Position numbers and translations under genes: made by a program. From Eledone cirrhosa (lineage: Eukaryota): a stretch of 64,000 nucleotides of DNA. Below the pieces are notes generated by a model. It saw only the letters and a list, made by a program, of their open reading frames with translations. It made no database searches and had not been told where the DNA came from. The stretch covers positions 60,450,001-60,514,000 of the forward strand of contig OZ024744.1 in assembly GCA_964016885.1 (NCBI GenBank), written 5' to 3'. Within the stretch, counting starts at the first letter, position 1. Each line of letters opens with the position of its first letter. Shown one piece after another: positions 5,458-63,029 of this stretch.

Positions 5458-5637
5458 ATATTTATTAAAATAACAGATTAAAGTTTAAGCAAAGAATTCT
5501 GTCTTCCTCCGGTTGCAACGTTTTTGAAATATCCAGTTCTGCGTTTACAGATTGACTTTGTTAGTTTCAGAAGATCCCGTTAAGGGTGAAAGCAGCGATT
5601 CTTTGCTTAAACTTTAATCTGTTATTTTAATAAATAT
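5458..5637. repeat. Fold-back element with 40-bp inverted repeats (Penelope pLTR-like); second copy at 31545-31662
   Basis: ATATTTATTAAAATAACAGATTAAAGTTTAAGCAAAGAAT at 5458-5497 is the reverse complement of 5598-5637; (TA)n nearby. Confidence 0.75.
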
Positions 5638-6206: not shown

Positions 6207-6385
6207 GTCATTTTCTTTGGTAAGATGAGATAAACTCGATGCAGTTTCTTTTCACTCCTGAAGAACAGAGGATGCTCTGTTCTTCGGGAGTGAAAAGAAA
6301 CTGGATGAATTAAGGGTAGTTCAGGTAGCAGAGTATTTAAAATTCAAACTCAAGAAAGCCAAGGATAGGATATTATTTTTTTATT

Positions 6386-26239: not shown

Positions 26240-26760
26240 TAGAAGATTTGCATATTAGCAGACTGGCTGATCAGTCAGATCTGCATATTAGCAAATCCAC
26301 TTATCAGCCAGATTTACATATCAGCAGACAGGCCAGTCAGTTTCATGTATACGAACGATTAATGGTCGGCTTTGCCATATTCAAATTTTTTTTTTAATTA
26401 TCGCTCTACATGGCTGAATACAATAAATGTAATCTAAGTTTTTAGAATATTAATAATAATATTCGATTCGTTTGCAATTATGCAAACAGCCTCTATTTTA
26501 AAGCCATCTTCTTTTTTAATATGGCAAAACCAGCCATTAATTGTTCGTATACAGGAAACTGACTGGTCTGCCTGCTGAAATGCAAATCTGGCTGATCAGT
26601 GGATCTGCCAATATGCAGATCTGACTGATCAGCCAGTCTGCTAATATGCAAATCAGGCCGATCAGTCACAGTATATTTTAGAAAATATCATATATTCTAC
26701 TGACATGGCTTTGAAAAAGAGGCTGTTTGCATATTTGCAAACGAATCGAATATCTAAACT
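26240..26760. repeat. Fold-back element (~137-bp inverted arms), same family as 50721-51380
   Basis: 26244-26380 vs 26518-26654 inverted; shares CAGACTGGCTGATCAGTC.GATCTGCATATTAGC and GGCTGAATACAATAAATGTAATC. Confidence 0.85.
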
Positions 26761-27654: not shown

Positions 27655-27862
27655 CATATCTACATACATATATACTTACGTATAATATCAATATACACAC
27701 TACACATGCTAGCAGAAAACCACCCGAGGGGTGGTTTTTCTGCTAGTTATTATCAATATTCGAAAAACTCAGATTACAGATATAGATATAGATAATTATA
27801 TATGCTAGCATGTGTAGTGTGTATATTGATATTATACGCAAGTATATATGCATGTAGATATG
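27655..27862. repeat. Fold-back with 60-bp inverted arms and inner hairpin
   Basis: 27655-27714 vs 27803-27862; inner CTAGCAGAAAACCACC/GGTGGTTTTTCTGCTAG; carries AATATTCGAAAAACTCAGATTACA of the 50.7-kb family. Confidence 0.8.
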
Positions 27863-27939
27863 ATACATCAAATATAATCGTAATTGGAGGCTACAAAGAT
27901 GGAGGCTGCAAAGCTCTCAGCATCGTAGCTGATATTCAC

Positions 27940-31671: not shown

Positions 31672-31742
31672 TATTTATTTATTCTGACGACTGAAGACAG
31701 ACACAACATCTGCCTTCAAGAAACTACTAGTAAATGAAATAA
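31672..31742 (+). ncRNA. Type I hammerhead ribozyme motif
   Basis: UUUAUU-CUGACGA-C-UGAAGACAGA/UCUGCCUUCA-A-GAAA-CUACUAG-UA-AAUGAA; GUA triplet. Confidence 0.72.
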
Positions 31743-31820
31743 TTATCTTATGATGTTATTACATAACTAATAAGCTCTGTAGCCTACATAGAGCACTCTT
31801 ACATACATACACACACATAT

Positions 31821-42176: not shown

Positions 42177-42250
42177 TATTTCATCTGATGAACAGGCTGG
42201 ATGTTTCTGTAAAGATCGTCTAGTGTCTTGAAACCTTTGGTGATGGAATA
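42177..42250 (+). ncRNA. Degenerate hammerhead motif (GUG at cleavage triplet)
   Basis: UAUUUCAU-CUGAUGA-stem II-GAAA-CCUUUGG-UG-AUGGAAUA; downstream AGCTCTGTA..TACATAGAGCACTCTT shared with the 31.7-kb copy. Confidence 0.65.
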
Positions 42251-42364
42251 ATTATATTGTGTTGTTTATTATGTAATTAAATAGCTCTGTACAATACATA
42301 GAGCACTCTTCTTTCCTTTACCTTTTCTACAGAAATACTTAACACACATACACACACACACACA

Positions 42365-42402
<38 letters not shown>

Positions 42403-50655: not shown

Positions 50656-50720
<65 letters not shown>

Positions 50721-50725
<5 letters not shown>

Positions 50726-51380
50726 GTAATCTGAGTTTTTCGAATATTAATAACATTCGATTCGTTTTCAATTATGCAAACAAGCCTCAATTTTATAGCT
50801 ATGTCAGTAGAATGAACCTTCATTCTGGCTCTTTTGTTGGCATGTGAACAGAACTGCAGACACTAATGTTTCTGGGCATCACCCTTCATCAGTACAACTC
50901 ACTGTTCACCTGCCAAACTCTCAGATCTAGTGAAAATATATGCTATTTTCAAAAATACACAGTGACTGATCGGCCTAATTTGTATGTCAGCAGACTGGCT
51001 GATCAGTCGGATCTGCATATTAGCAGATCCACTGATCAGCAGACTGGCCAGTCAGTTTCCTGTATACAAGCGATAAATGGCCAGCTTTGCCAAATACAAA
51101 TAAAAAGGAAAATTTCACTTTACATGGCTGAATACAATAAATGTAATCTGAGTTTTTAGAATTATGCAAACAAGCCTCAATTTTATAGTCATGTCAGTTT
51201 TATAGGCATGCGAACAGTTCTGTTCGCATGCCAACACAATGTGTTCATTCTACTGACATGGCTATAAAATTGAGGTTTGTTTGCATAATTGCAAACAAAT
51301 CGAATGTTATTATTAATATTCGAAAAACTCAGATTACATTTATTGTATTCAGCCATGTAGAGCGAAATTTTCTTTTATAT
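50721..51380. mobile_element. Hammerhead-bearing fold-back element (Penelope pLTR/retrozyme-like)
   Basis: ~100-bp inverted arms at 50721-50817 and 51243-51342 next to (TA)n; internal hammerhead. Confidence 0.8.
50837..50916 (-). ncRNA. Type I hammerhead ribozyme with intact core and GUC site
   Basis: GAGUUGUA-CUGAUGA-A-GGGU-GAU-GCCC-A-GAAA-CAUUAGUG-UC-UGCAGUUC; stem I extended by ~15 further bp. Confidence 0.85.
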
Positions 51381-51397
51381 ATGTCATTTTATATTTG

Positions 51398-53360
51398 TCA
51401 TTTTACGTCTGCTTTTCCCTGCTTGCAAGGATAGGACAGGTCCTATTCAGCACAGCATCTCTCCACTTGTCATATTCCTTCATCATCTTCTCCATGGGCT
51501 TCAGCGATCTGAGGTCTGCTCTTACCACCTCCGCCCATGTTTTTCATGGTCTTCCTCTATTGCGTCATCTACTGGGATTTTTTGGCTCTTTTTTGCCCAG
51601 CGGTCATCCTCCATACGCATCATATGTCCATACCATTACAGTTTTCTCTCCTGCACACTACAACTTATCCCTCTTAAACACAGTTTCTCTCTTAACTCAT
51701 CCATGCTTGGTCGTTCACGCACATTGACATTGCACATCCAATAGAGCATGCTTGCTTCATTTCTCTCCAGCCATTGCATATCTTCTGCAGTTGCTGCCCA
51801 TGTCTCACTACTATGCAGCATCGCACATCTCACACAGGCATCATATAACCAGCCTTTCGTACGCAGGGAGAAACCCTTTTTTGTCAACAGAGGAAGCAGC
51901 TCCGTAAACTTCTTCCAACCCATCCTTATTCTAGATACTATAGCTTCGGAACACCCGCCCCTTCCCTTGCTAATCTAATCACCTAGGTACCGGAAGCTAT
52001 CAACCACTTCTATAGAACCTACCTGTATTTGAAAAATGTGTCTATCACTGTGACTTCTACTGTCAAATTTCCCTGTACATCTACTGCATATGTAGTTTCC
52101 CTACTTGTTAGTTTGCCTGCTATCCAACTACATCTCTTGTGTACCGAAGATCTGCATTGTGTACATTTTATAGAATTTATGCCAGCTCCTTTTCTACTTA
52201 TCAACACTTTTGTCTTAACTAGGTTCATTCTCAGTCCTCTTGATTCCAACTGCTGTTTCCATAGCCAGAATTTATTCTCTAGCTCCTCTACTGATTCTGC
52301 TATAAGTACCAGATCGTCAGCATAGAGAAGTTCCCATGGACAGCCAATCTTAAACTCCTCTGTTATGGCTTGGAGGACTATAACGAACAAGAGCGGGCTG
52401 AGGACCGAACCCTGATGTACTCCTACTTGTATCTGGAACTCACCACTAAACTCCATTCCTACTCGCACTTTACTGACAGCACCTCTGTACATAGCTTGCA
52501 CTGTCCTCACAGGCCATTCCTCTACACCTAGTTTCCTTAGGGACCACCAGATGACAGATCGGGGTACCCTATCAAAGGCCTTCTCTAGGTCAATAAAAGC
52601 TAAGTATAGTGGCTTATTCTTCTCTAAGAACCTCTCACTAAGTTGTCTCACTAAATCGTCTTCCTTTTTGTCATACACATCTTGAAGGGCTATCCTAAAT
52701 TTATATTTTAGTGAAAGGTCTTTTAGCTTCCAGACCTTTCTTCTCCACACCTTCCTGTATGTCTCATTTTGTCTCTTGTTTATTGAGATATCACTAATGA
52801 CTAACCTATGCTGGGGGGTACATTCTTCCCCGGGGTATGCCTTAGTATTTGACACCATCTGTCTGTCTCCTTGCCTAACTAGCAAGAAATCAATCTGGCT
52901 TATGTGCTCGCCTGATTTGTAGGATATTAGGTGGTTGGTAGGTTTCTTGAAGTTAGTGTTGCAAATGGTTAGTGCACTTACATCACAAAATTCAAGAAGC
53001 CGCATTCCTTCTTTGTTTCTTGAGCCATAACCGTGCTCACCATGTACCCCAGTGTATCCATCCTGGAGCCATCCAACATGACCATTGAAGTCCCCTGCTA
53101 GTATAACGATGTCTCTGTCCTCTGTCATTGAGGCTGTTTGTAAAAGTTGCTCGTAAAAGCAGTCTTTCTCTTCTTTACCTAGGCCTGCCTGGGGAGCATA
53201 GGCAGAGATGATTGTCAGTAGTCTCTTCTCTACAACTTATCTAATCTCAATTATTCTATTACTGACTCTAACTACTTCTATTGCCTTATTGATCCATCTC
53301 TCAGCCAGGAAAATGCCTACCCTGCCTAACCCACCATCATTACCTACCCAGAAAAGCTTA
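51398..53360 (-). mobile_element. RTE LINE (short-3'UTR family) with large in-frame internal deletion
   Basis: ORF 52019-53128 joins the post-APE linker (YDKKEDD) directly to RT (LVRQLSERFL..YADD). Confidence 0.92.
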
Positions 53361-54098: not shown

Positions 54099-57086
54099 TT
54101 AGAGATGCCTACTGGCAAGGCGGGTCTTCTCTGTTACTGAGTACCGCCAAAGGTCTCGGTCCAGTGACATTGTCTTGGAGAGGTGTAAGTGTGTGAGGTC
54201 GGAGTTTATCAGCTCGTCCCAGGTTTTTCTAGGTCTGCCTATTCCGTGGCTACCGTCTATCTTTATTGCCCTGCACTTTGTTATACAGCTATCGACTTTC
54301 ATGCGCATCACGTGTCCATACCAACGTAGCCTTCTCTCGAGTAAACAACATCTGATCCCTCTTATCTCTAATTTTTTCCTTAGTTCGTTTATGCTTTGCC
54401 GTTCACGTATATTACTGTTACACATCCAGCGGAGCATGCAAGCTTCGTTCCTCTCTAGTCTGCGTATATCCTCTGCACACAATGCCCAGGTCTCACTGCC
54501 ATGCAGCATTGCTGTTCGTATGCAGGCATCGTACAACCTGCCTTTCATTTTTAGGGAGAACCCTTTAGCAACTAATAGTGGTATAAGCTCTCTGAACTTT
54601 TTCCAACCAGTTCTGACTCTAGCTACAGTACTTTCAGAGCACCCTCCCCCACTGCTGATTTTATCGCCCAGGTAACGGAAGCTGTCCACTATTTCTATAG
54701 AACCCTCTGCGCAATTGAAAGAGCTAGTATTTTGTGGGCACTTGCTGCTACTTATTGCACCAGAACACCGGCCACATATAAAATGTATGTTCTTAGTTAG
54801 CTTACCTGTGATCCCACTACATCTTTTATGCACCCATACTTTGCATTTAGGACATAAAATGGAGTTTCTACCTACGCCTTTCCTACACACCGAGCACGAC
54901 CATTTCCCAGAAGGGACCGCCGCCTTGTTTTCTTTCCTACAAACTAGAACTTTGGTCTTAGCCAGGTTAATTTTAAGTCCTTTTGACTCTAGGCCGTGCT
55001 TCCATGTTTGGAATTTCTTCTCTAGCTCGGCCATTGATTCCGCTATGAGTGCCAGGTCGTCTGCGTATAGGAGTTCCCATGGGCAGCCTGTCTTGAACTC
55101 CTCTGTTATAGCCTGAAGGGCAATAATAAATAGTAGGGGGCTGAGAACAGAGCCCTGATGGACGCCAACTTTTACGCTAAACTCTTCACTATATTCGTTG
55201 TTAATTCTAACCTTGCTGACTGTTTCTTTATACATGGCTTGTATAGCCCTCACAAGCCATTCGTCAACGCCTAGTTTTCTAAGAGCCCACCAGATAATGG
55301 AGCGGGGGACTCTGTCGAAGGCTTTCTCCAGGTCGACAAAAGCTAAGTAGAGGGGTTTACCTTTAGCTAGGTACTTCTCCTGTAGTTGTCGTACTATGAA
55401 AAGAGCGTCTGTGGTGCTTTTGCCTGACACAAACCCGAACTGCATTTCATCTAGGTCAATTCTCTCTCTGATTAGTTGCGCTATTACTTTTTCCGTGACC
55501 TTCATGACCTGGTCGATTAATTTAATGCCTCTATAGTTACTCCTATCTAGGGCGTCTCCTTTACCCTTATAACAGTTAACGATGATGCTGCTATGCCAGT
55601 CCTTCGGAACAACCCCATTCTGTACGACTTGGTTAACTATGCGGGTGACCATGGTGTGTCCCACCGTGCCAGATGCCTTCAGCATCTCAGCAACTATTTC
55701 CGAAGGCCCAGCCGCCTTACCCGTCTTCATATCCTTGATTGCCTTACTTATTATACTCCCCTCGAGTAACACTGCTGGTCCCTCTATTGGGTCGATATGG
55801 GGGAGACTGTCTTTCTCCCATTTATTCTCCTCATTTAGTAGCCTTTCATAGTGACACTTCCAAGCTACCTTCTTATCAGTGTCGGTGATGGCAAGTATGC
55901 CATCATCGTTAAGTACACACTTCTCCCCGACAATATCACGGTTTTCCTTGACGCATTGCCTAGCAATCCTGAACACCTCACGTTTTTGGTCATCGCGTTG
56001 TAGAACATGCTTGAACTTTCTTTCCTCAGCTTCCCTTCTTGCTAAGTACACTTCTCTCCTAGCTTCCCTCCTGGCCACTTGATAGTCTACTCTACTTCCC
56101 CCATCCCGCCATACTTTCCAAGCCTGCTTTTTGGCCTTAATTGACCCCTCCACCTTACTGTTCCACCACCATGTTACTCTCCTCCTGCCTACAGGCCTGC
56201 TCCAGCCACAGACTTCGTCTGTCGCCAACAGCAGGTTTGCTTTCAGAAATTCCCACTGTCCCTCTATATTGTCCGACTCTAGATGCTCTTCCTTACTGTC
56301 GAAAGCATCAAGTAATATGCTTTGAAATTTATTTCTGGCTGTGGGGTCCTTTAGCTTCCATATTTTCCTCCTGAGGATAGTCCTCTTCTGCTGTCGAGTA
56401 CGTCTCGTCCTGACTATGAGGTCGCTAATTATCAGTCTATGTTGGGAGGTGCATTCTTCATGGGGGAGGGATTTAGTGTTTACAACAGACACTCTGTCAC
56501 GTCTTCTGGTAAGGATATAATCTACCTGGCTTGTATGTTCCCCGGATCTATAGGTGATCAGGTGATTGTCACGTTTTTTGAAGTTAGTGTTACAGATAGT
56601 TAGGTTATTTGCATCACAGAATTCCAGGATTCTGGAGCCTTCCTCATTTCTAGTACCAAACCCATAGCCTCCATGGATTTCGTCGTAGCCGTCACAATGT
56701 TGTCCAACGTGACCATTTAGGTCGCCTGCAATAATTATATAGTCACTGTCAGATATTTGGGAGGTAGTTAGCAACAGTGTCTCATAGAATCTGTCTTTTA
56801 TAGTGCCGGGCAGTCCGGATTGGGGTGCGTACGCAGATATTACTGTCACCGTAGTTCTATTGAGGACAAGTCGTATTTTAATTATTCTGTCGTTCACTCT
56901 ATTTACGTCTATTATCTTATCTGCCCACTTTTCTGCTACCATGATTCCTACTCCACCCAGCCCATCGTCGTTTCCCACCCAGAAAAGCTTATAACATCGT
57001 TTTTTACCCTCAATGAATCTAGCAGACCCACCCCTCCACCTGGTCTCTTGAATACAACAAACATCGACCTCCTTACGTTCAAGCAT
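54099..57086 (-). CDS. RTE ORF2: AP endonuclease plus reverse transcriptase with inserted PHD-type finger
   Basis: IQETRW, SAYAPQ, GDLNGHVG, VDYIL, SQHRLI; NYRGIKL, DLEKAFD, QGSVLSP, YADD, FRYLG; frame stays open upstream to ~57194 (FRVGTINVGTL). Confidence 0.95.
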   Translation of the reverse strand: MLERKEVDVCCIQETRWRGGSARFIEGKKRCYKLFWVGNDDGLGGVGIMVAEKWADKIIDVNRVNDRIIKIRLVLNRTTVTVISAYAPQSGLPGTIKDRFYETLLLTTSQISDSDYIIIAGDLNGHVGQHCDGYDEIHGGYGFGTRNEEGSRILEFCDANNLTICNTNFKKRDNHLITYRSGEHTSQVDYILTRRRDRVSVVNTKSLPHEECTSQHRLIISDLIVRTRRTRQQKRTILRRKIWKLKDPTARNKFQSILLDAFDSKEEHLESDNIEGQWEFLKANLLLATDEVCGWSRPVGRRRVTWWWNSKVEGSIKAKKQAWKVWRDGGSRVDYQVARREARREVYLARREAEERKFKHVLQRDDQKREVFRIARQCVKENRDIVGEKCVLNDDGILAITDTDKKVAWKCHYERLLNEENKWEKDSLPHIDPIEGPAVLLEGSIISKAIKDMKTGKAAGPSEIVAEMLKASGTVGHTMVTRIVNQVVQNGVVPKDWHSSIIVNCYKGKGDALDRSNYRGIKLIDQVMKVTEKVIAQLIRERIDLDEMQFGFVSGKSTTDALFIVRQLQEKYLAKGKPLYLAFVDLEKAFDRVPRSIIWWALRKLGVDEWLVRAIQAMYKETVSKVRINNEYSEEFSVKVGVHQGSVLSPLLFIIALQAITEEFKTGCPWELLYADDLALIAESMAELEKKFQTWKHGLESKGLKINLAKTKVLVCRKENKAAVPSGKWSCSVCRKGVGRNSILCPKCKVWVHKRCSGITGKLTKNIHFICGRCSGAISSSKCPQNTSSFNCAEGSIEIVDSFRYLGDKISSGGGCSESTVARVRTGWKKFRELIPLLVAKGFSLKMKGRLYDACIRTAMLHGSETWALCAEDIRRLERNEACMLRWMCNSNIRERQSINELRKKLEIRGIRCCLLERRLRWYGHVMRMKVDSCITKCRAIKIDGSHGIGRPRKTWDELINSDLTHLHLSKTMSLDRDLWRYSVTEKTRLASRHL

Positions 57087-57127
57087 TTCTACAACCTCGT
57101 TAGCGCGACCCTTTAGGGTGCCTACAT

Positions 57128-57271
57128 TTATGGTACCAACTCTGAAGTTTTGGATTGCGTTTGGAGGGTGGGGGCGGGGGGAGATAGGGTTATGTTAGCC
57201 ATCCGCGGACGAAACAAAGAGGAGTGCTCGCATTCTCGTCCACGAGGTGAATTTGACTTTAACTTTGGCAT
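57128..57271 (-). CDS. Candidate short RTE ORF1 (47 aa) overlapping the ORF2 frame
   Basis: ATG at 57271 to TAA at 57128 overlaps the ATG-less start of the APE domain. Confidence 0.45.
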   Translation of the reverse strand: MPKLKSNSPRGRECEHSSLFRPRMANITLSPPAPTLQTQSKTSELVP

Positions 57272-61260: not shown

Positions 61261-61484
61261 CCTATATAGATATAGGTGTGTGTGTGTATGTACTTATATG
61301 TATATCTGTGATGTTGACAGACAATTATGAGTTTGTATGTTCAGTTGCAGACTGTAGAAAAAGGGGAAGACCCAGGGTAGAGGAATGAGATGAATAGGTG
61401 TTTTTTAGTTCAAAAACACCCATCCACTTCACTCCTTCCCCCAGGGTCTTCTATTTCTACAGGCTCTCTGTCTCTGAACATACA

Positions 61485-61533
61485 ATCTTGTCTGATGATC
61501 CTGTTAGTACACAGGTGAAACTCCATAATAAAG
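61485..61533 (+). ncRNA. Degenerate hammerhead motif; partial second copy at 61937-61985
   Basis: UCUUGU-CUGAUGA-U-CCUGU-loop-ACAGG-U-GAAA-CUCCA-UA-AUAAAG. Confidence 0.55.
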
Positions 61534-63029
61534 AATAACAGCAGGAGGTCAAGATATATGTAAGTATGTTGGAGGGCCAGTTTAAAGAATGCTTCCTTAA
61601 CTATCAAATGACTTTTAGACATACTGACAAGCAATTGGCTGACAAGCCAAATATGGTCACTCAAAGATGAACATAATCAATGTTTTCCTCAGTGGTGGCA
61701 GTTGCAGGTCATCCAGACATTGGGTCATTTTCAAGACTCTCCCTTCCCCTCCTACATTCAGCTGCCCATTTTTTTTATGTGGCAACCCTGTCAGCATGAA
61801 TGCCCTTGGGGACTAAACCCCTTTTCTGCAGGTACTTGATAACATCATGATACCATAATTCTAGTTTTCGTTTCTCAACTTGACATATGAAAAATATTTG
61901 TTTATATATCCTTTAAATTTGTATAAAATATATTATGTCTTGTCTGATGATCCTGTGAGTACACATCGGAAACTCTAGAATAACAATGCTCATTACTTAG
62001 CCATACTAAGAATATTATATCATCATCATCACTTTTTAAACATCTATTTTCTATGACGTTGATAACATTCTTAGGTTGTCTAGTATAAATAATGCTTTAT
62101 CTAATTACAATAATGTATTAAACAGATCTCAAAATACTAACACTAATATCTAATTGCTATTGTAGGGTCTCTGACTCTTGCCCACTTAAGGGCAATTAGA
62201 AATAATGTTGTATATAAGTAAGAAGTCTCAACACAAAAAAAAACTCTTACAATTAAATATGAGTAACTGCAAATAAATTTATGAGCCATTTTTATTCTCA
62301 TTTACTTTTGGCATTTAAAAAGCAATAGCTTAAGATAATCTCTTAAGTGAGATATTATTAATTCTGCAAAATCTTATAATGGAGGTAGAACTAAATACTT
62401 AAAATTATTACTCAATTCAAAGAATGAAATATTCCCTTCCTGTCCACAAAATATTTCATTCTTTCTTTTACAAAAACTTTGACTTTGATTAATTATACTC
62501 ATGACACCCTTACTTAAGTATTTTTATTAACACTTCATACCCTACCTTTATGTTAAACTTGTAAAATCCCTGTTACCTGTCTTTGACTACTGTGTTTAAT
62601 GAACTCTAATTTTTAAATCACACACACATGTTCTAAAAGTTTCATTTTGCTCTCCTATTTATCATAATTGTAAGCCGATCAATGATATATTCCCAGCCTT
62701 ATTCTTCCAGTAGTTTATCTTCTCTGTACTGATATGGTTTAGTTATTGAAATTTCTTAATCATTTAACCTTTATTTTAATTATAGATATATTTATTGCCA
62801 TTTTATGCTTCCATAACTTTTAACTTCCTTTTGGTATATTCTAATAAGAATTTTATAATGTCACTTAGTAAGTGACATTATAATTCGCATTAGTATAAAT
62901 CTAGCTCTATTTTATTTTGTTATCTTTTATAATTATGATATATTATAGTTAGTAAATTATCTATAGTTACTGAACATAAATATTTTATCATTTATAAATT
63001 TTAATTACATTTTTAGGCTTCCATAATAT

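Follow-up and report, generated by a model that had tools for sequence, protein, structure and literature searches.

Judged by its sequence, the insertion at positions 50720-51378 of the 64-kb window (the whole stretch of DNA analysed, 64,000 nucleotides) is a copy, now aged, of a non-coding animal repeat of high abundance, and the hammerhead on its minus strand is a real but non-canonical variant, conserved across the repeat family and carried in an ordinary Penelope-type insertion. We consider it probable that this high-copy repeat of ~420-440 bp is a non-autonomous Penelope-like element (PLE) of the kind called a non-LTR retrozyme, that its motif would cut only as a dimer or with the help of protein, and that a second, "twin" hairpin in the same insertion is a head-to-head junction formed where reverse transcriptase (RT) ran off a self-cleaved RNA end. 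The features on which this reading rests are collected in Table 1.

Table 1. Features of the insertion, its flanks, and family relatives in the window
Feature	Positions	Strand	Remarks
Type I hammerhead motif, whole	50837-50916	-	Motif scan and fold
Stem I, 5' arm	50893-50916	-	Outer part 50916-50902, bulge 50901-50900, inner part 50899-50893; fold
Core C3 to A9, CUGAUGA	50886-50892	-	C3 is 50892; sequence
Helix II, 4 bp and 3-nt loop	50873-50885	-	Lies between unpaired A50885 and A50873; scan, fold, and family reads
Core G12 to A15.1, GAAA	50869-50872	-	Sequence
Helix III segment, 10 nt, self-complementary	50860-50869	-	Also complementary to the core; fold
Predicted scissile bond, after C17 (50859)	50858-50859	-	By the hammerhead consensus of PMC3088659
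Stem I, 3' arm	50837-50858	-	Fold
(TA)32 microsatellite, left target	50659-50722		Target-site duplication not discernible
Long arm, partial tandem of period 417	50720-51217	-	Ends at a fixed 3' end, 50720-50725
Unit body, non-coding, containing internal repeats of 16-33 bp	50935-51113	-	Also found in the 26246-26751 copy
"Twin" hairpin, head-to-head junction of two 3' arms	51204-51231		Overlap CAG at 51215-51217
Short inverted arm	51215-51378	+	Starts at +3 after the predicted cut
Extension of ~35 nt past the other arm's 3' end (Penelope-type tail)	51344-51378	+	Right end uncertain by ~6 nt
TA-rich tail of a neighbouring LINE, right target	51376-51400		Sequence comparison
Second family copy, head-to-head	26246-26751		Junction near 26507; one arm without the hammerhead segment
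Family fragment of 33 nt ending at the common 3' end (CAGATTACA)	27746-27778	+	Sequence comparison

All letters of a type I core are present (C3 U4 G5 A6 N7 G8 A9, G12 A13 A14 A15.1, and U16.1 H17), and in the predicted fold helices I, II, and III comprise 21, 4, and 3 pairs, helix I being open-ended and helix III lengthening to 10 pairs in a dimer. Stem I, for which an earlier note on this DNA gave ~23 bp, proved to contain 21 pairs on the minus strand: 7 in the inner part (3 of them G·U), then a 2-nt bulge, then 14 in the outer part alongside a single G·A mismatch. In the monomer hammerhead fold, the 3 bp of helix III close a 4-nt loop and are followed by a GUC triplet ending at C17. By sequence this C is 50859, the predicted site and the one given in the earlier note. 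Positions 10.1 and 11.1 are A50885 and A50873, so that no base pair sits directly on the core. The same note had called this an intact and complete type I core; the description stands for the core letters, the GUC triplet, and helices I to III, but needs qualifying for the A·A at 10.1/11.1, for the self-complementary helix III and the predicted monomer rod (both described below), and for the lack of an Rfam match, since a search of the hammerhead region returned no hammerhead model either at the gathering score or at E≤10. The miRNA-type Rfam matches reflect only long hairpins and were dismissed. Exact-pattern scans of viral contigs and of metagenome contigs also gave no match.

A relaxed type I descriptor found 2 loci in the window, compared with a mean of 0.005 (maximum, 1) in 200 block-wise dinucleotide shuffles of the window, and the motif is therefore not a product of chance. 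Core-like strings at 6258, 31016, 31691, 46417, and 7817 failed the helix tests and were rejected. Perreault et al. (2011; PMC3088659) discarded matches mispaired at 10.1/11.1 and reported one natural U10.1·U11.1 hammerhead as active, U·U being described as the best-tolerated mismatch. The present motif resembles that ribozyme in that helix II opens with a mismatch, but here the mismatch is A·A and is conserved across a high-copy animal repeat family. In PLE hammerheads, A9 is commonly followed by a single additional nucleotide and then by a conserved G-C pair (PMC4209133). Our motif shares with these variants its type I form, a small palindromic helix III, and the extra nucleotide after A9 with the G-C that follows, but it has a second extra nucleotide between C11.1 and G12 (equivalently, the A·A at 10.1/11.1). 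Read as A·A, these positions depart from the G-C pair kept in PLE hammerheads, which counts against the ribozyme. Minimal PLE hammerheads combine a long helix II with a short helix I; the present motif has the opposite proportions, with 4 bp in helix II and 21 bp in stem I.

To follow the motif through its family, reads and contigs from 4 of 11 runs were aligned to the unit 50723-51139 at 80% likeness; the counts cover organisms A, B, and C, with D and E, which hold small shares, left out. Family pieces numbered 4806 (contig pieces) in run X1 and 38125 (reads) in run X9, both from organism A, 29 in X5 (organism B), and 1135 in X6 (organism C). Of the variation detected, 40 of 182 substitutions, 12 of 38 indels, and 15 of 148 joints were listed for inspection, and no variant among the substitutions and indels listed falls in the core (50859-50873 and 50885-50892) or on either extra A. 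In organism B, record 12 (50820-50916) has 5 differences and no gaps, each difference matching a listed non-core variant; its core, A·A included, is therefore identical. For organism C, the two deepest of 30 depth bins span 50849-50876, over the cut site and helix III. In paired positions, all 5 of the 5 variants listed keep the minus-strand pair. At two of these positions, 50877 and 50897, it is the present copy that has gone from a Watson-Crick pair to G·U, so that only the other three bear on selection, and weakly (by chance, ~1 in 8). The variants listed include no compensatory change on both sides of a pair. We regard it as very probable that the family motif was once under selection. A loose end at 50876 in run X6 marks a subfamily of 29 contigs in organism C with another helix II loop and another inner stem I 5' arm; its core and the extra A after A9 are unchanged.

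The unit of ~417 bp contains no ORF. The joint 51139>50723, found in 982 reads from 96 starts, carries the unit through its tail into the non-coding body. A unit that lacks an ORF and closes on itself fits a non-autonomous derivative, that is, a non-LTR retrozyme. The two differences between units that might tell a rolling-circle template from a tandem one lie at a CpG and in a TAA run, and fit either template. This copy differs from the X1 majority at at least 18 of 417 positions (~4%) among the differences listed, two of the 18 weakening its stems, and it lacks a 17-nt segment found in 2002 X9 reads. The 13318 X9 reads that start at 50841 were considered as a ribozyme end and rejected, since a family variant creates a restriction site at that position, by its sequence probably that of SphI.

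Energy calculations bear on whether such a motif could cut. The 10-nt palindrome of helix III has a self-duplex energy of -8.8 kcal/mol. For the monomer of this copy, the hammerhead fold reaches -24.3 kcal/mol against a minimum free energy (MFE) of -32.9 kcal/mol, and the probability of helix III is 0.00; the lowest-energy structure, favoured by 8.6 kcal/mol, is a rod in which pairing of the helix III segment buries the core. In a dimer of this copy the active fold lies at -60.8 kcal/mol and the cofold MFE at -71.0 kcal/mol, and with two family-majority letters the corresponding values are -70.8 and -79.4 kcal/mol; all of these are nearest-neighbour energies, which leave out tertiary contacts and proteins. 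The palindromic helix III points to cleavage in dimers, a combination typical of PLE hammerheads (for the palindromic helix III, see PMC4209133). Among Xenopus retrozyme dimers, only 1 of 9 is reported to have cleaved. Because the monomer is predicted to fold into a rod, a monomer transcript is predicted to stay uncut whether or not the family ribozyme works, and a lack of monomer cleavage would thus be no valid refutation of the ribozyme. To single this copy out as the best candidate for ribozyme activity, as the earlier note does, goes too far, given its 18 of 417 differences from the family majority and the rod predicted for its monomer; the note also mentions neither the A·A at the base of helix II nor the Penelope-type architecture. 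Cleavage by the family ribozyme in dimer or extended form is predicted, and we think it reasonably likely; that 50837-50916 itself is an active ribozyme in vivo is unlikely, and so is a role of this copy as an active source.

Were the motif a relic that no longer cuts or cuts very slowly, retained as a rod-like structure for circle stability or protein binding, the strong preference for the rod in both monomer and dimer would be accounted for. The A·A would then mark the loss of catalysis, in keeping with the weight normally given to a 10.1/11.1 mispair as disqualifying (PMC3088659), and one copy in the window has indeed lost the whole motif. We find this explanation rather improbable in view of the core letters, which are single-stranded in the active fold and yet invariant, with no listed variant in three organisms; moreover, the helix III palindrome is perfect, and two unrelated families in the window share the unpaired position with different letters. 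A motif that may still cleave, at least at the level of the family, is the reading that we retain.

The unpaired 10.1/11.1 position recurs in three unrelated families within 64 kb, as A·A, C·A, and U·U. The second type I motif, at 31672-31745 on the plus strand (locus 31684), passes the relaxed scan with C·A at 10.1/11.1. It has a long helix II, a 9-nt palindromic helix III, a GUA triplet, and a 6-bp stem I, and a (CA)n(TA)n tract follows downstream of it; its flanks have relatives at 5518-5634 and 42243-42401. The third family is decayed. Its copies, at 61480-61550 and 61932-62000 on the plus strand, lie 452 bp apart and share 46 nt at 87%; the motifs (61492 and 61944) fail the relaxed scan, the first having U·U at the base of helix II by eye and the second retaining a remnant palindromic helix III. 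After the third-family motif, a 42-aa stop-free frame at 61542-61667 (plus strand) resembles, by its motif, a decayed Penelope GIY-YIG segment; it gave no Pfam match and only unnamed low-score matches in the atlas, and we make no claim for it. A wider reading, which we offer tentatively and think somewhat unlikely as a whole, is that the host lineage has a class of PLE-type hammerheads in which helix II is flanked on each side by an unpaired nucleotide (A·A, C·A, or U·U), which cut nonetheless and are missed by standard descriptors and by Rfam, that the helix III palindrome of the present family may serve as a core-pairing off-switch in lone units, and that the insertion may be a fossil record of self-cleaved RNA ends setting Penelope-type inversion sites.

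The architecture of the insertion makes Penelope-type mobility of the family highly likely. Read on the minus strand, the long arm begins just past one predicted cut site, runs through a whole unit and the intact hammerhead, and continues for 138 more bases to the 3' end beside (TA)32, while the short arm passes the common 3' end at 51343 and adds its extension before the TA-rich tail of the LINE. Summed contig depth in X1, which is not a copy number, is 231797 at 50723-50736 and 26425 at 51129-51139, a ~9-fold fall across the 3' end. The marks of PLE insertions given in PMC8557442 are a partial tandem, an inverted 5'-truncated copy, a 30-40 bp tail, and a bias toward microsatellites. Here, the partial tandem and the inverted, 5'-truncated head-to-head copy are both present, and the 26246-26751 copy is likewise head-to-head; a tail of 30-40 bp is seen directly at this locus only (51344-51378), and the target is AT-rich or microsatellite DNA on both sides. 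In the 26246-26751 copy, one arm has lost the equivalent of 50814-50934, the whole hammerhead with its stem, at 26694-26696, where ATT/ATTC is the shared word. No autonomous partner with RT and GIY-YIG was seen within the 64-kb window.

Three papers deal with PLE insertion (PMC8557442, PMC3846280, and PMC11167929). Palindromes at head-to-head PLE junctions have been described, and PMC11167929 attributes the tail to two RT start sites and describes nicking in AT-rich DNA. Like the insertions of endonuclease-bearing PLEs in these papers, the present one combines a partial tandem, a head-to-head inverted copy, and a junction palindrome with a ~35-nt tail on one arm, a TA/AT-rich target, and a hammerhead in the terminal unit. 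It differs in that its unit has no ORF and in that its junction maps to the ribozyme cut site, a link that the accessible text of the three papers does not state; Arkhipova (2013) attributes such palindromes to an antisense template on which self-priming takes place. Non-LTR retrozymes of metazoans (PMC7229834 and bioRxiv 10.64898/2026.07.22.740005) are similar in their AT-rich, non-coding units, some hundreds of bp long, with one type I hammerhead each, in their high copy number, and in their strong self-pairing (z -7.0 for the unit here). The nearest tested ones, repeats of Mytilus galloprovincialis, are given as 350-390 bp long, against ~417-437 bp here. As in the definition of the non-LTR retrozyme unit (non-coding tandem, 150-450 bp, one type I hammerhead per unit), the period is 417. 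The locus holds one complete hammerhead rather than two consecutive ones, and it falls outside what the preprint calls an "active" retrozyme, which has two.

The inverted ends could also suggest a DNA-based non-autonomous transposon of MITE or helitron type that has captured a hammerhead, with terminal inverted repeats at 50720-50817 and 51243-51343; these are alike at 91 of 98 aligned positions and stand in TA-rich DNA. Inverted arm length and junction differ from copy to copy, the unit is a partial tandem with a ~35-nt extension at one end, and depth declines with distance from a fixed 3' end, a pattern of retroposed copies. We consider such a transposon very unlikely and keep to the Penelope-type element.

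The twin hairpin (DNA fold z -6.9) had been read as the outer part of stem I with the catalytic part missing, either by deletion of the hairpin tip or by a snap-back near the cleavage site during reverse transcription. The hairpin is there as written, but it consists of two 3' arms with downstream flanks. Both arms carry the letter of the 3' arm (CATG) and not the CCTG of the 5' arm; against the sequence downstream of the ribozyme the two flanks give local scores of 68 and 161 (shuffle maxima, 27 and 29), and against the sequence beyond the 5' arm they give 17 and 14, below the shuffle maxima. Loss of the core of a second hammerhead by deletion at the tip of its hairpin is thus refuted by arms and flanks alike, for all the resemblance of the hairpin to outer stem I, and we leave it practically no chance. 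The snap-back option, on the other hand, fits the junction. The plus-strand arm begins as given in Table 1 and the minus-strand arm at +8, so that both start 2-10 nt past the predicted cut, and share 3 nt of microhomology, CAG/CTG, where they meet. The two arms are alike at 108 of 116 positions and have different deletions, which speaks for an old structure of the genome and led us to reject an assembly fold-back artefact.

The following sequence of events would produce the locus. Tandem source loci would be transcribed in the ribozyme sense, and two hammerheads would come together by their helix III segments and cleave some of the sites at least, a lone unit being an inactive rod. A Penelope RT/endonuclease acting in trans would nick TA-rich DNA and prime at two nearby starts, the 50720-equivalent and another ~35 nt further on. 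The cDNA or cDNAs would end at the cut RNA 5' end, and the CAG/CTG microhomology would serve to close them. One cDNA might fold back, two might be joined, or a joint might form at the first four bases, which are palindromic, and then slip by a short distance; each of these would give the same junction. The long arm would have been read through one uncut or rejoined ribozyme. The copy would since have drifted by ~4%, and it is probably not a source copy.

Since both arms start so near the predicted cut, RT likely ran off a self-cleaved RNA end in this one case, and the evidence leans toward a junction set by such an end. By chance, one junction would fall within 10 nt past the cut of a 417-nt unit in 2.4% of cases, a figure for a single case picked after the fact, and two independent ends would both do so in 0.06%; furthermore, the long arm extends exactly from one cut site to the next. 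It is nevertheless a real possibility that the same element came to have its junction near the cut by coincidence, through a 5' truncation of the usual kind or through stalling on the long stem I, with a local 3-nt microhomology to close it and no cleavage. Among the 8 "opposite strand" joints listed (within the 15 of 148 joints), none ends in the first 10 nt downstream of the cut; these inversion joints are scattered, and the 26-kb copy joins elsewhere. The ddRAD run is blind to junctions of the twin type, since these lie between two SphI sites spaced by 20 nt. An inversion in 58 X9 reads (50874 to 50864) was rejected as a second cut-site junction; it starts at the same sequence, yet a 4-nt microhomology spanning the cut site explains it, which again suits coincidence. 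In addition, depth shows no drop at the cut site, so that most copies appear to be read through. For the one PLE tested in vitro, an element from Anolis, PMC11167929 reports insertion without need for ribozyme cleavage, uncut RNA as the main substrate, and no RNA-seq ends at the cut site. A cut RNA end remains our preferred origin for the junction.

The window as a whole is animal-type repetitive DNA, with many LINE copies, gypsy-like pieces, and TA microsatellites; the names of the LINE and gypsy-like families are presumptive, and a short repeat with 9 copies in the window is known from Octopus genomes. At 54099-57194 (minus strand), an uninterrupted frame of 1031 aa, by its motifs a LINE endonuclease/reverse transcriptase, belongs to the abundant LINE family and is a candidate young copy. 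The word ATGCAAAT occurs 9 times in the window against 4.6 expected, with 3 of the 9 in the 26-kb copy; in the unit body it is found at 26246-26653 and in family reads over 50977-51040. It corresponds to the octamer/POU site and is possibly an internal promoter element. At 27660-27866, an inverted-repeat structure identified by eye has arms of ~55 nt around a GC-rich hairpin (27711-27745) and holds the 33-nt family fragment.

Penelope-type end repeats that contain hammerheads and come with inverted copies and tails are known as a class. Our literature search, in which subscription papers were thinly covered, found no paper on this family, on an A·A at helix II, or on inversion junctions mapped to hammerhead cut sites (further literature: PMC6155905, PMC6765202, and PMC11014351). 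The role of the hammerhead in PLEs is called unclear in PMC8557442, and the ribozyme is described as dispensable in vitro in PMC11167929. If the present reading holds, a high-copy family with inversion junctions that can be mapped to the cut site would allow this question to be tested with nothing more than genome sequence. A conserved mismatch at the base of helix II that recurs in other families would, if true, mean that searches requiring a pair at this position undercount animal hammerheads, and on the wider reading given above the insertion itself would be genomic evidence for hammerhead function in Penelope-type elements.
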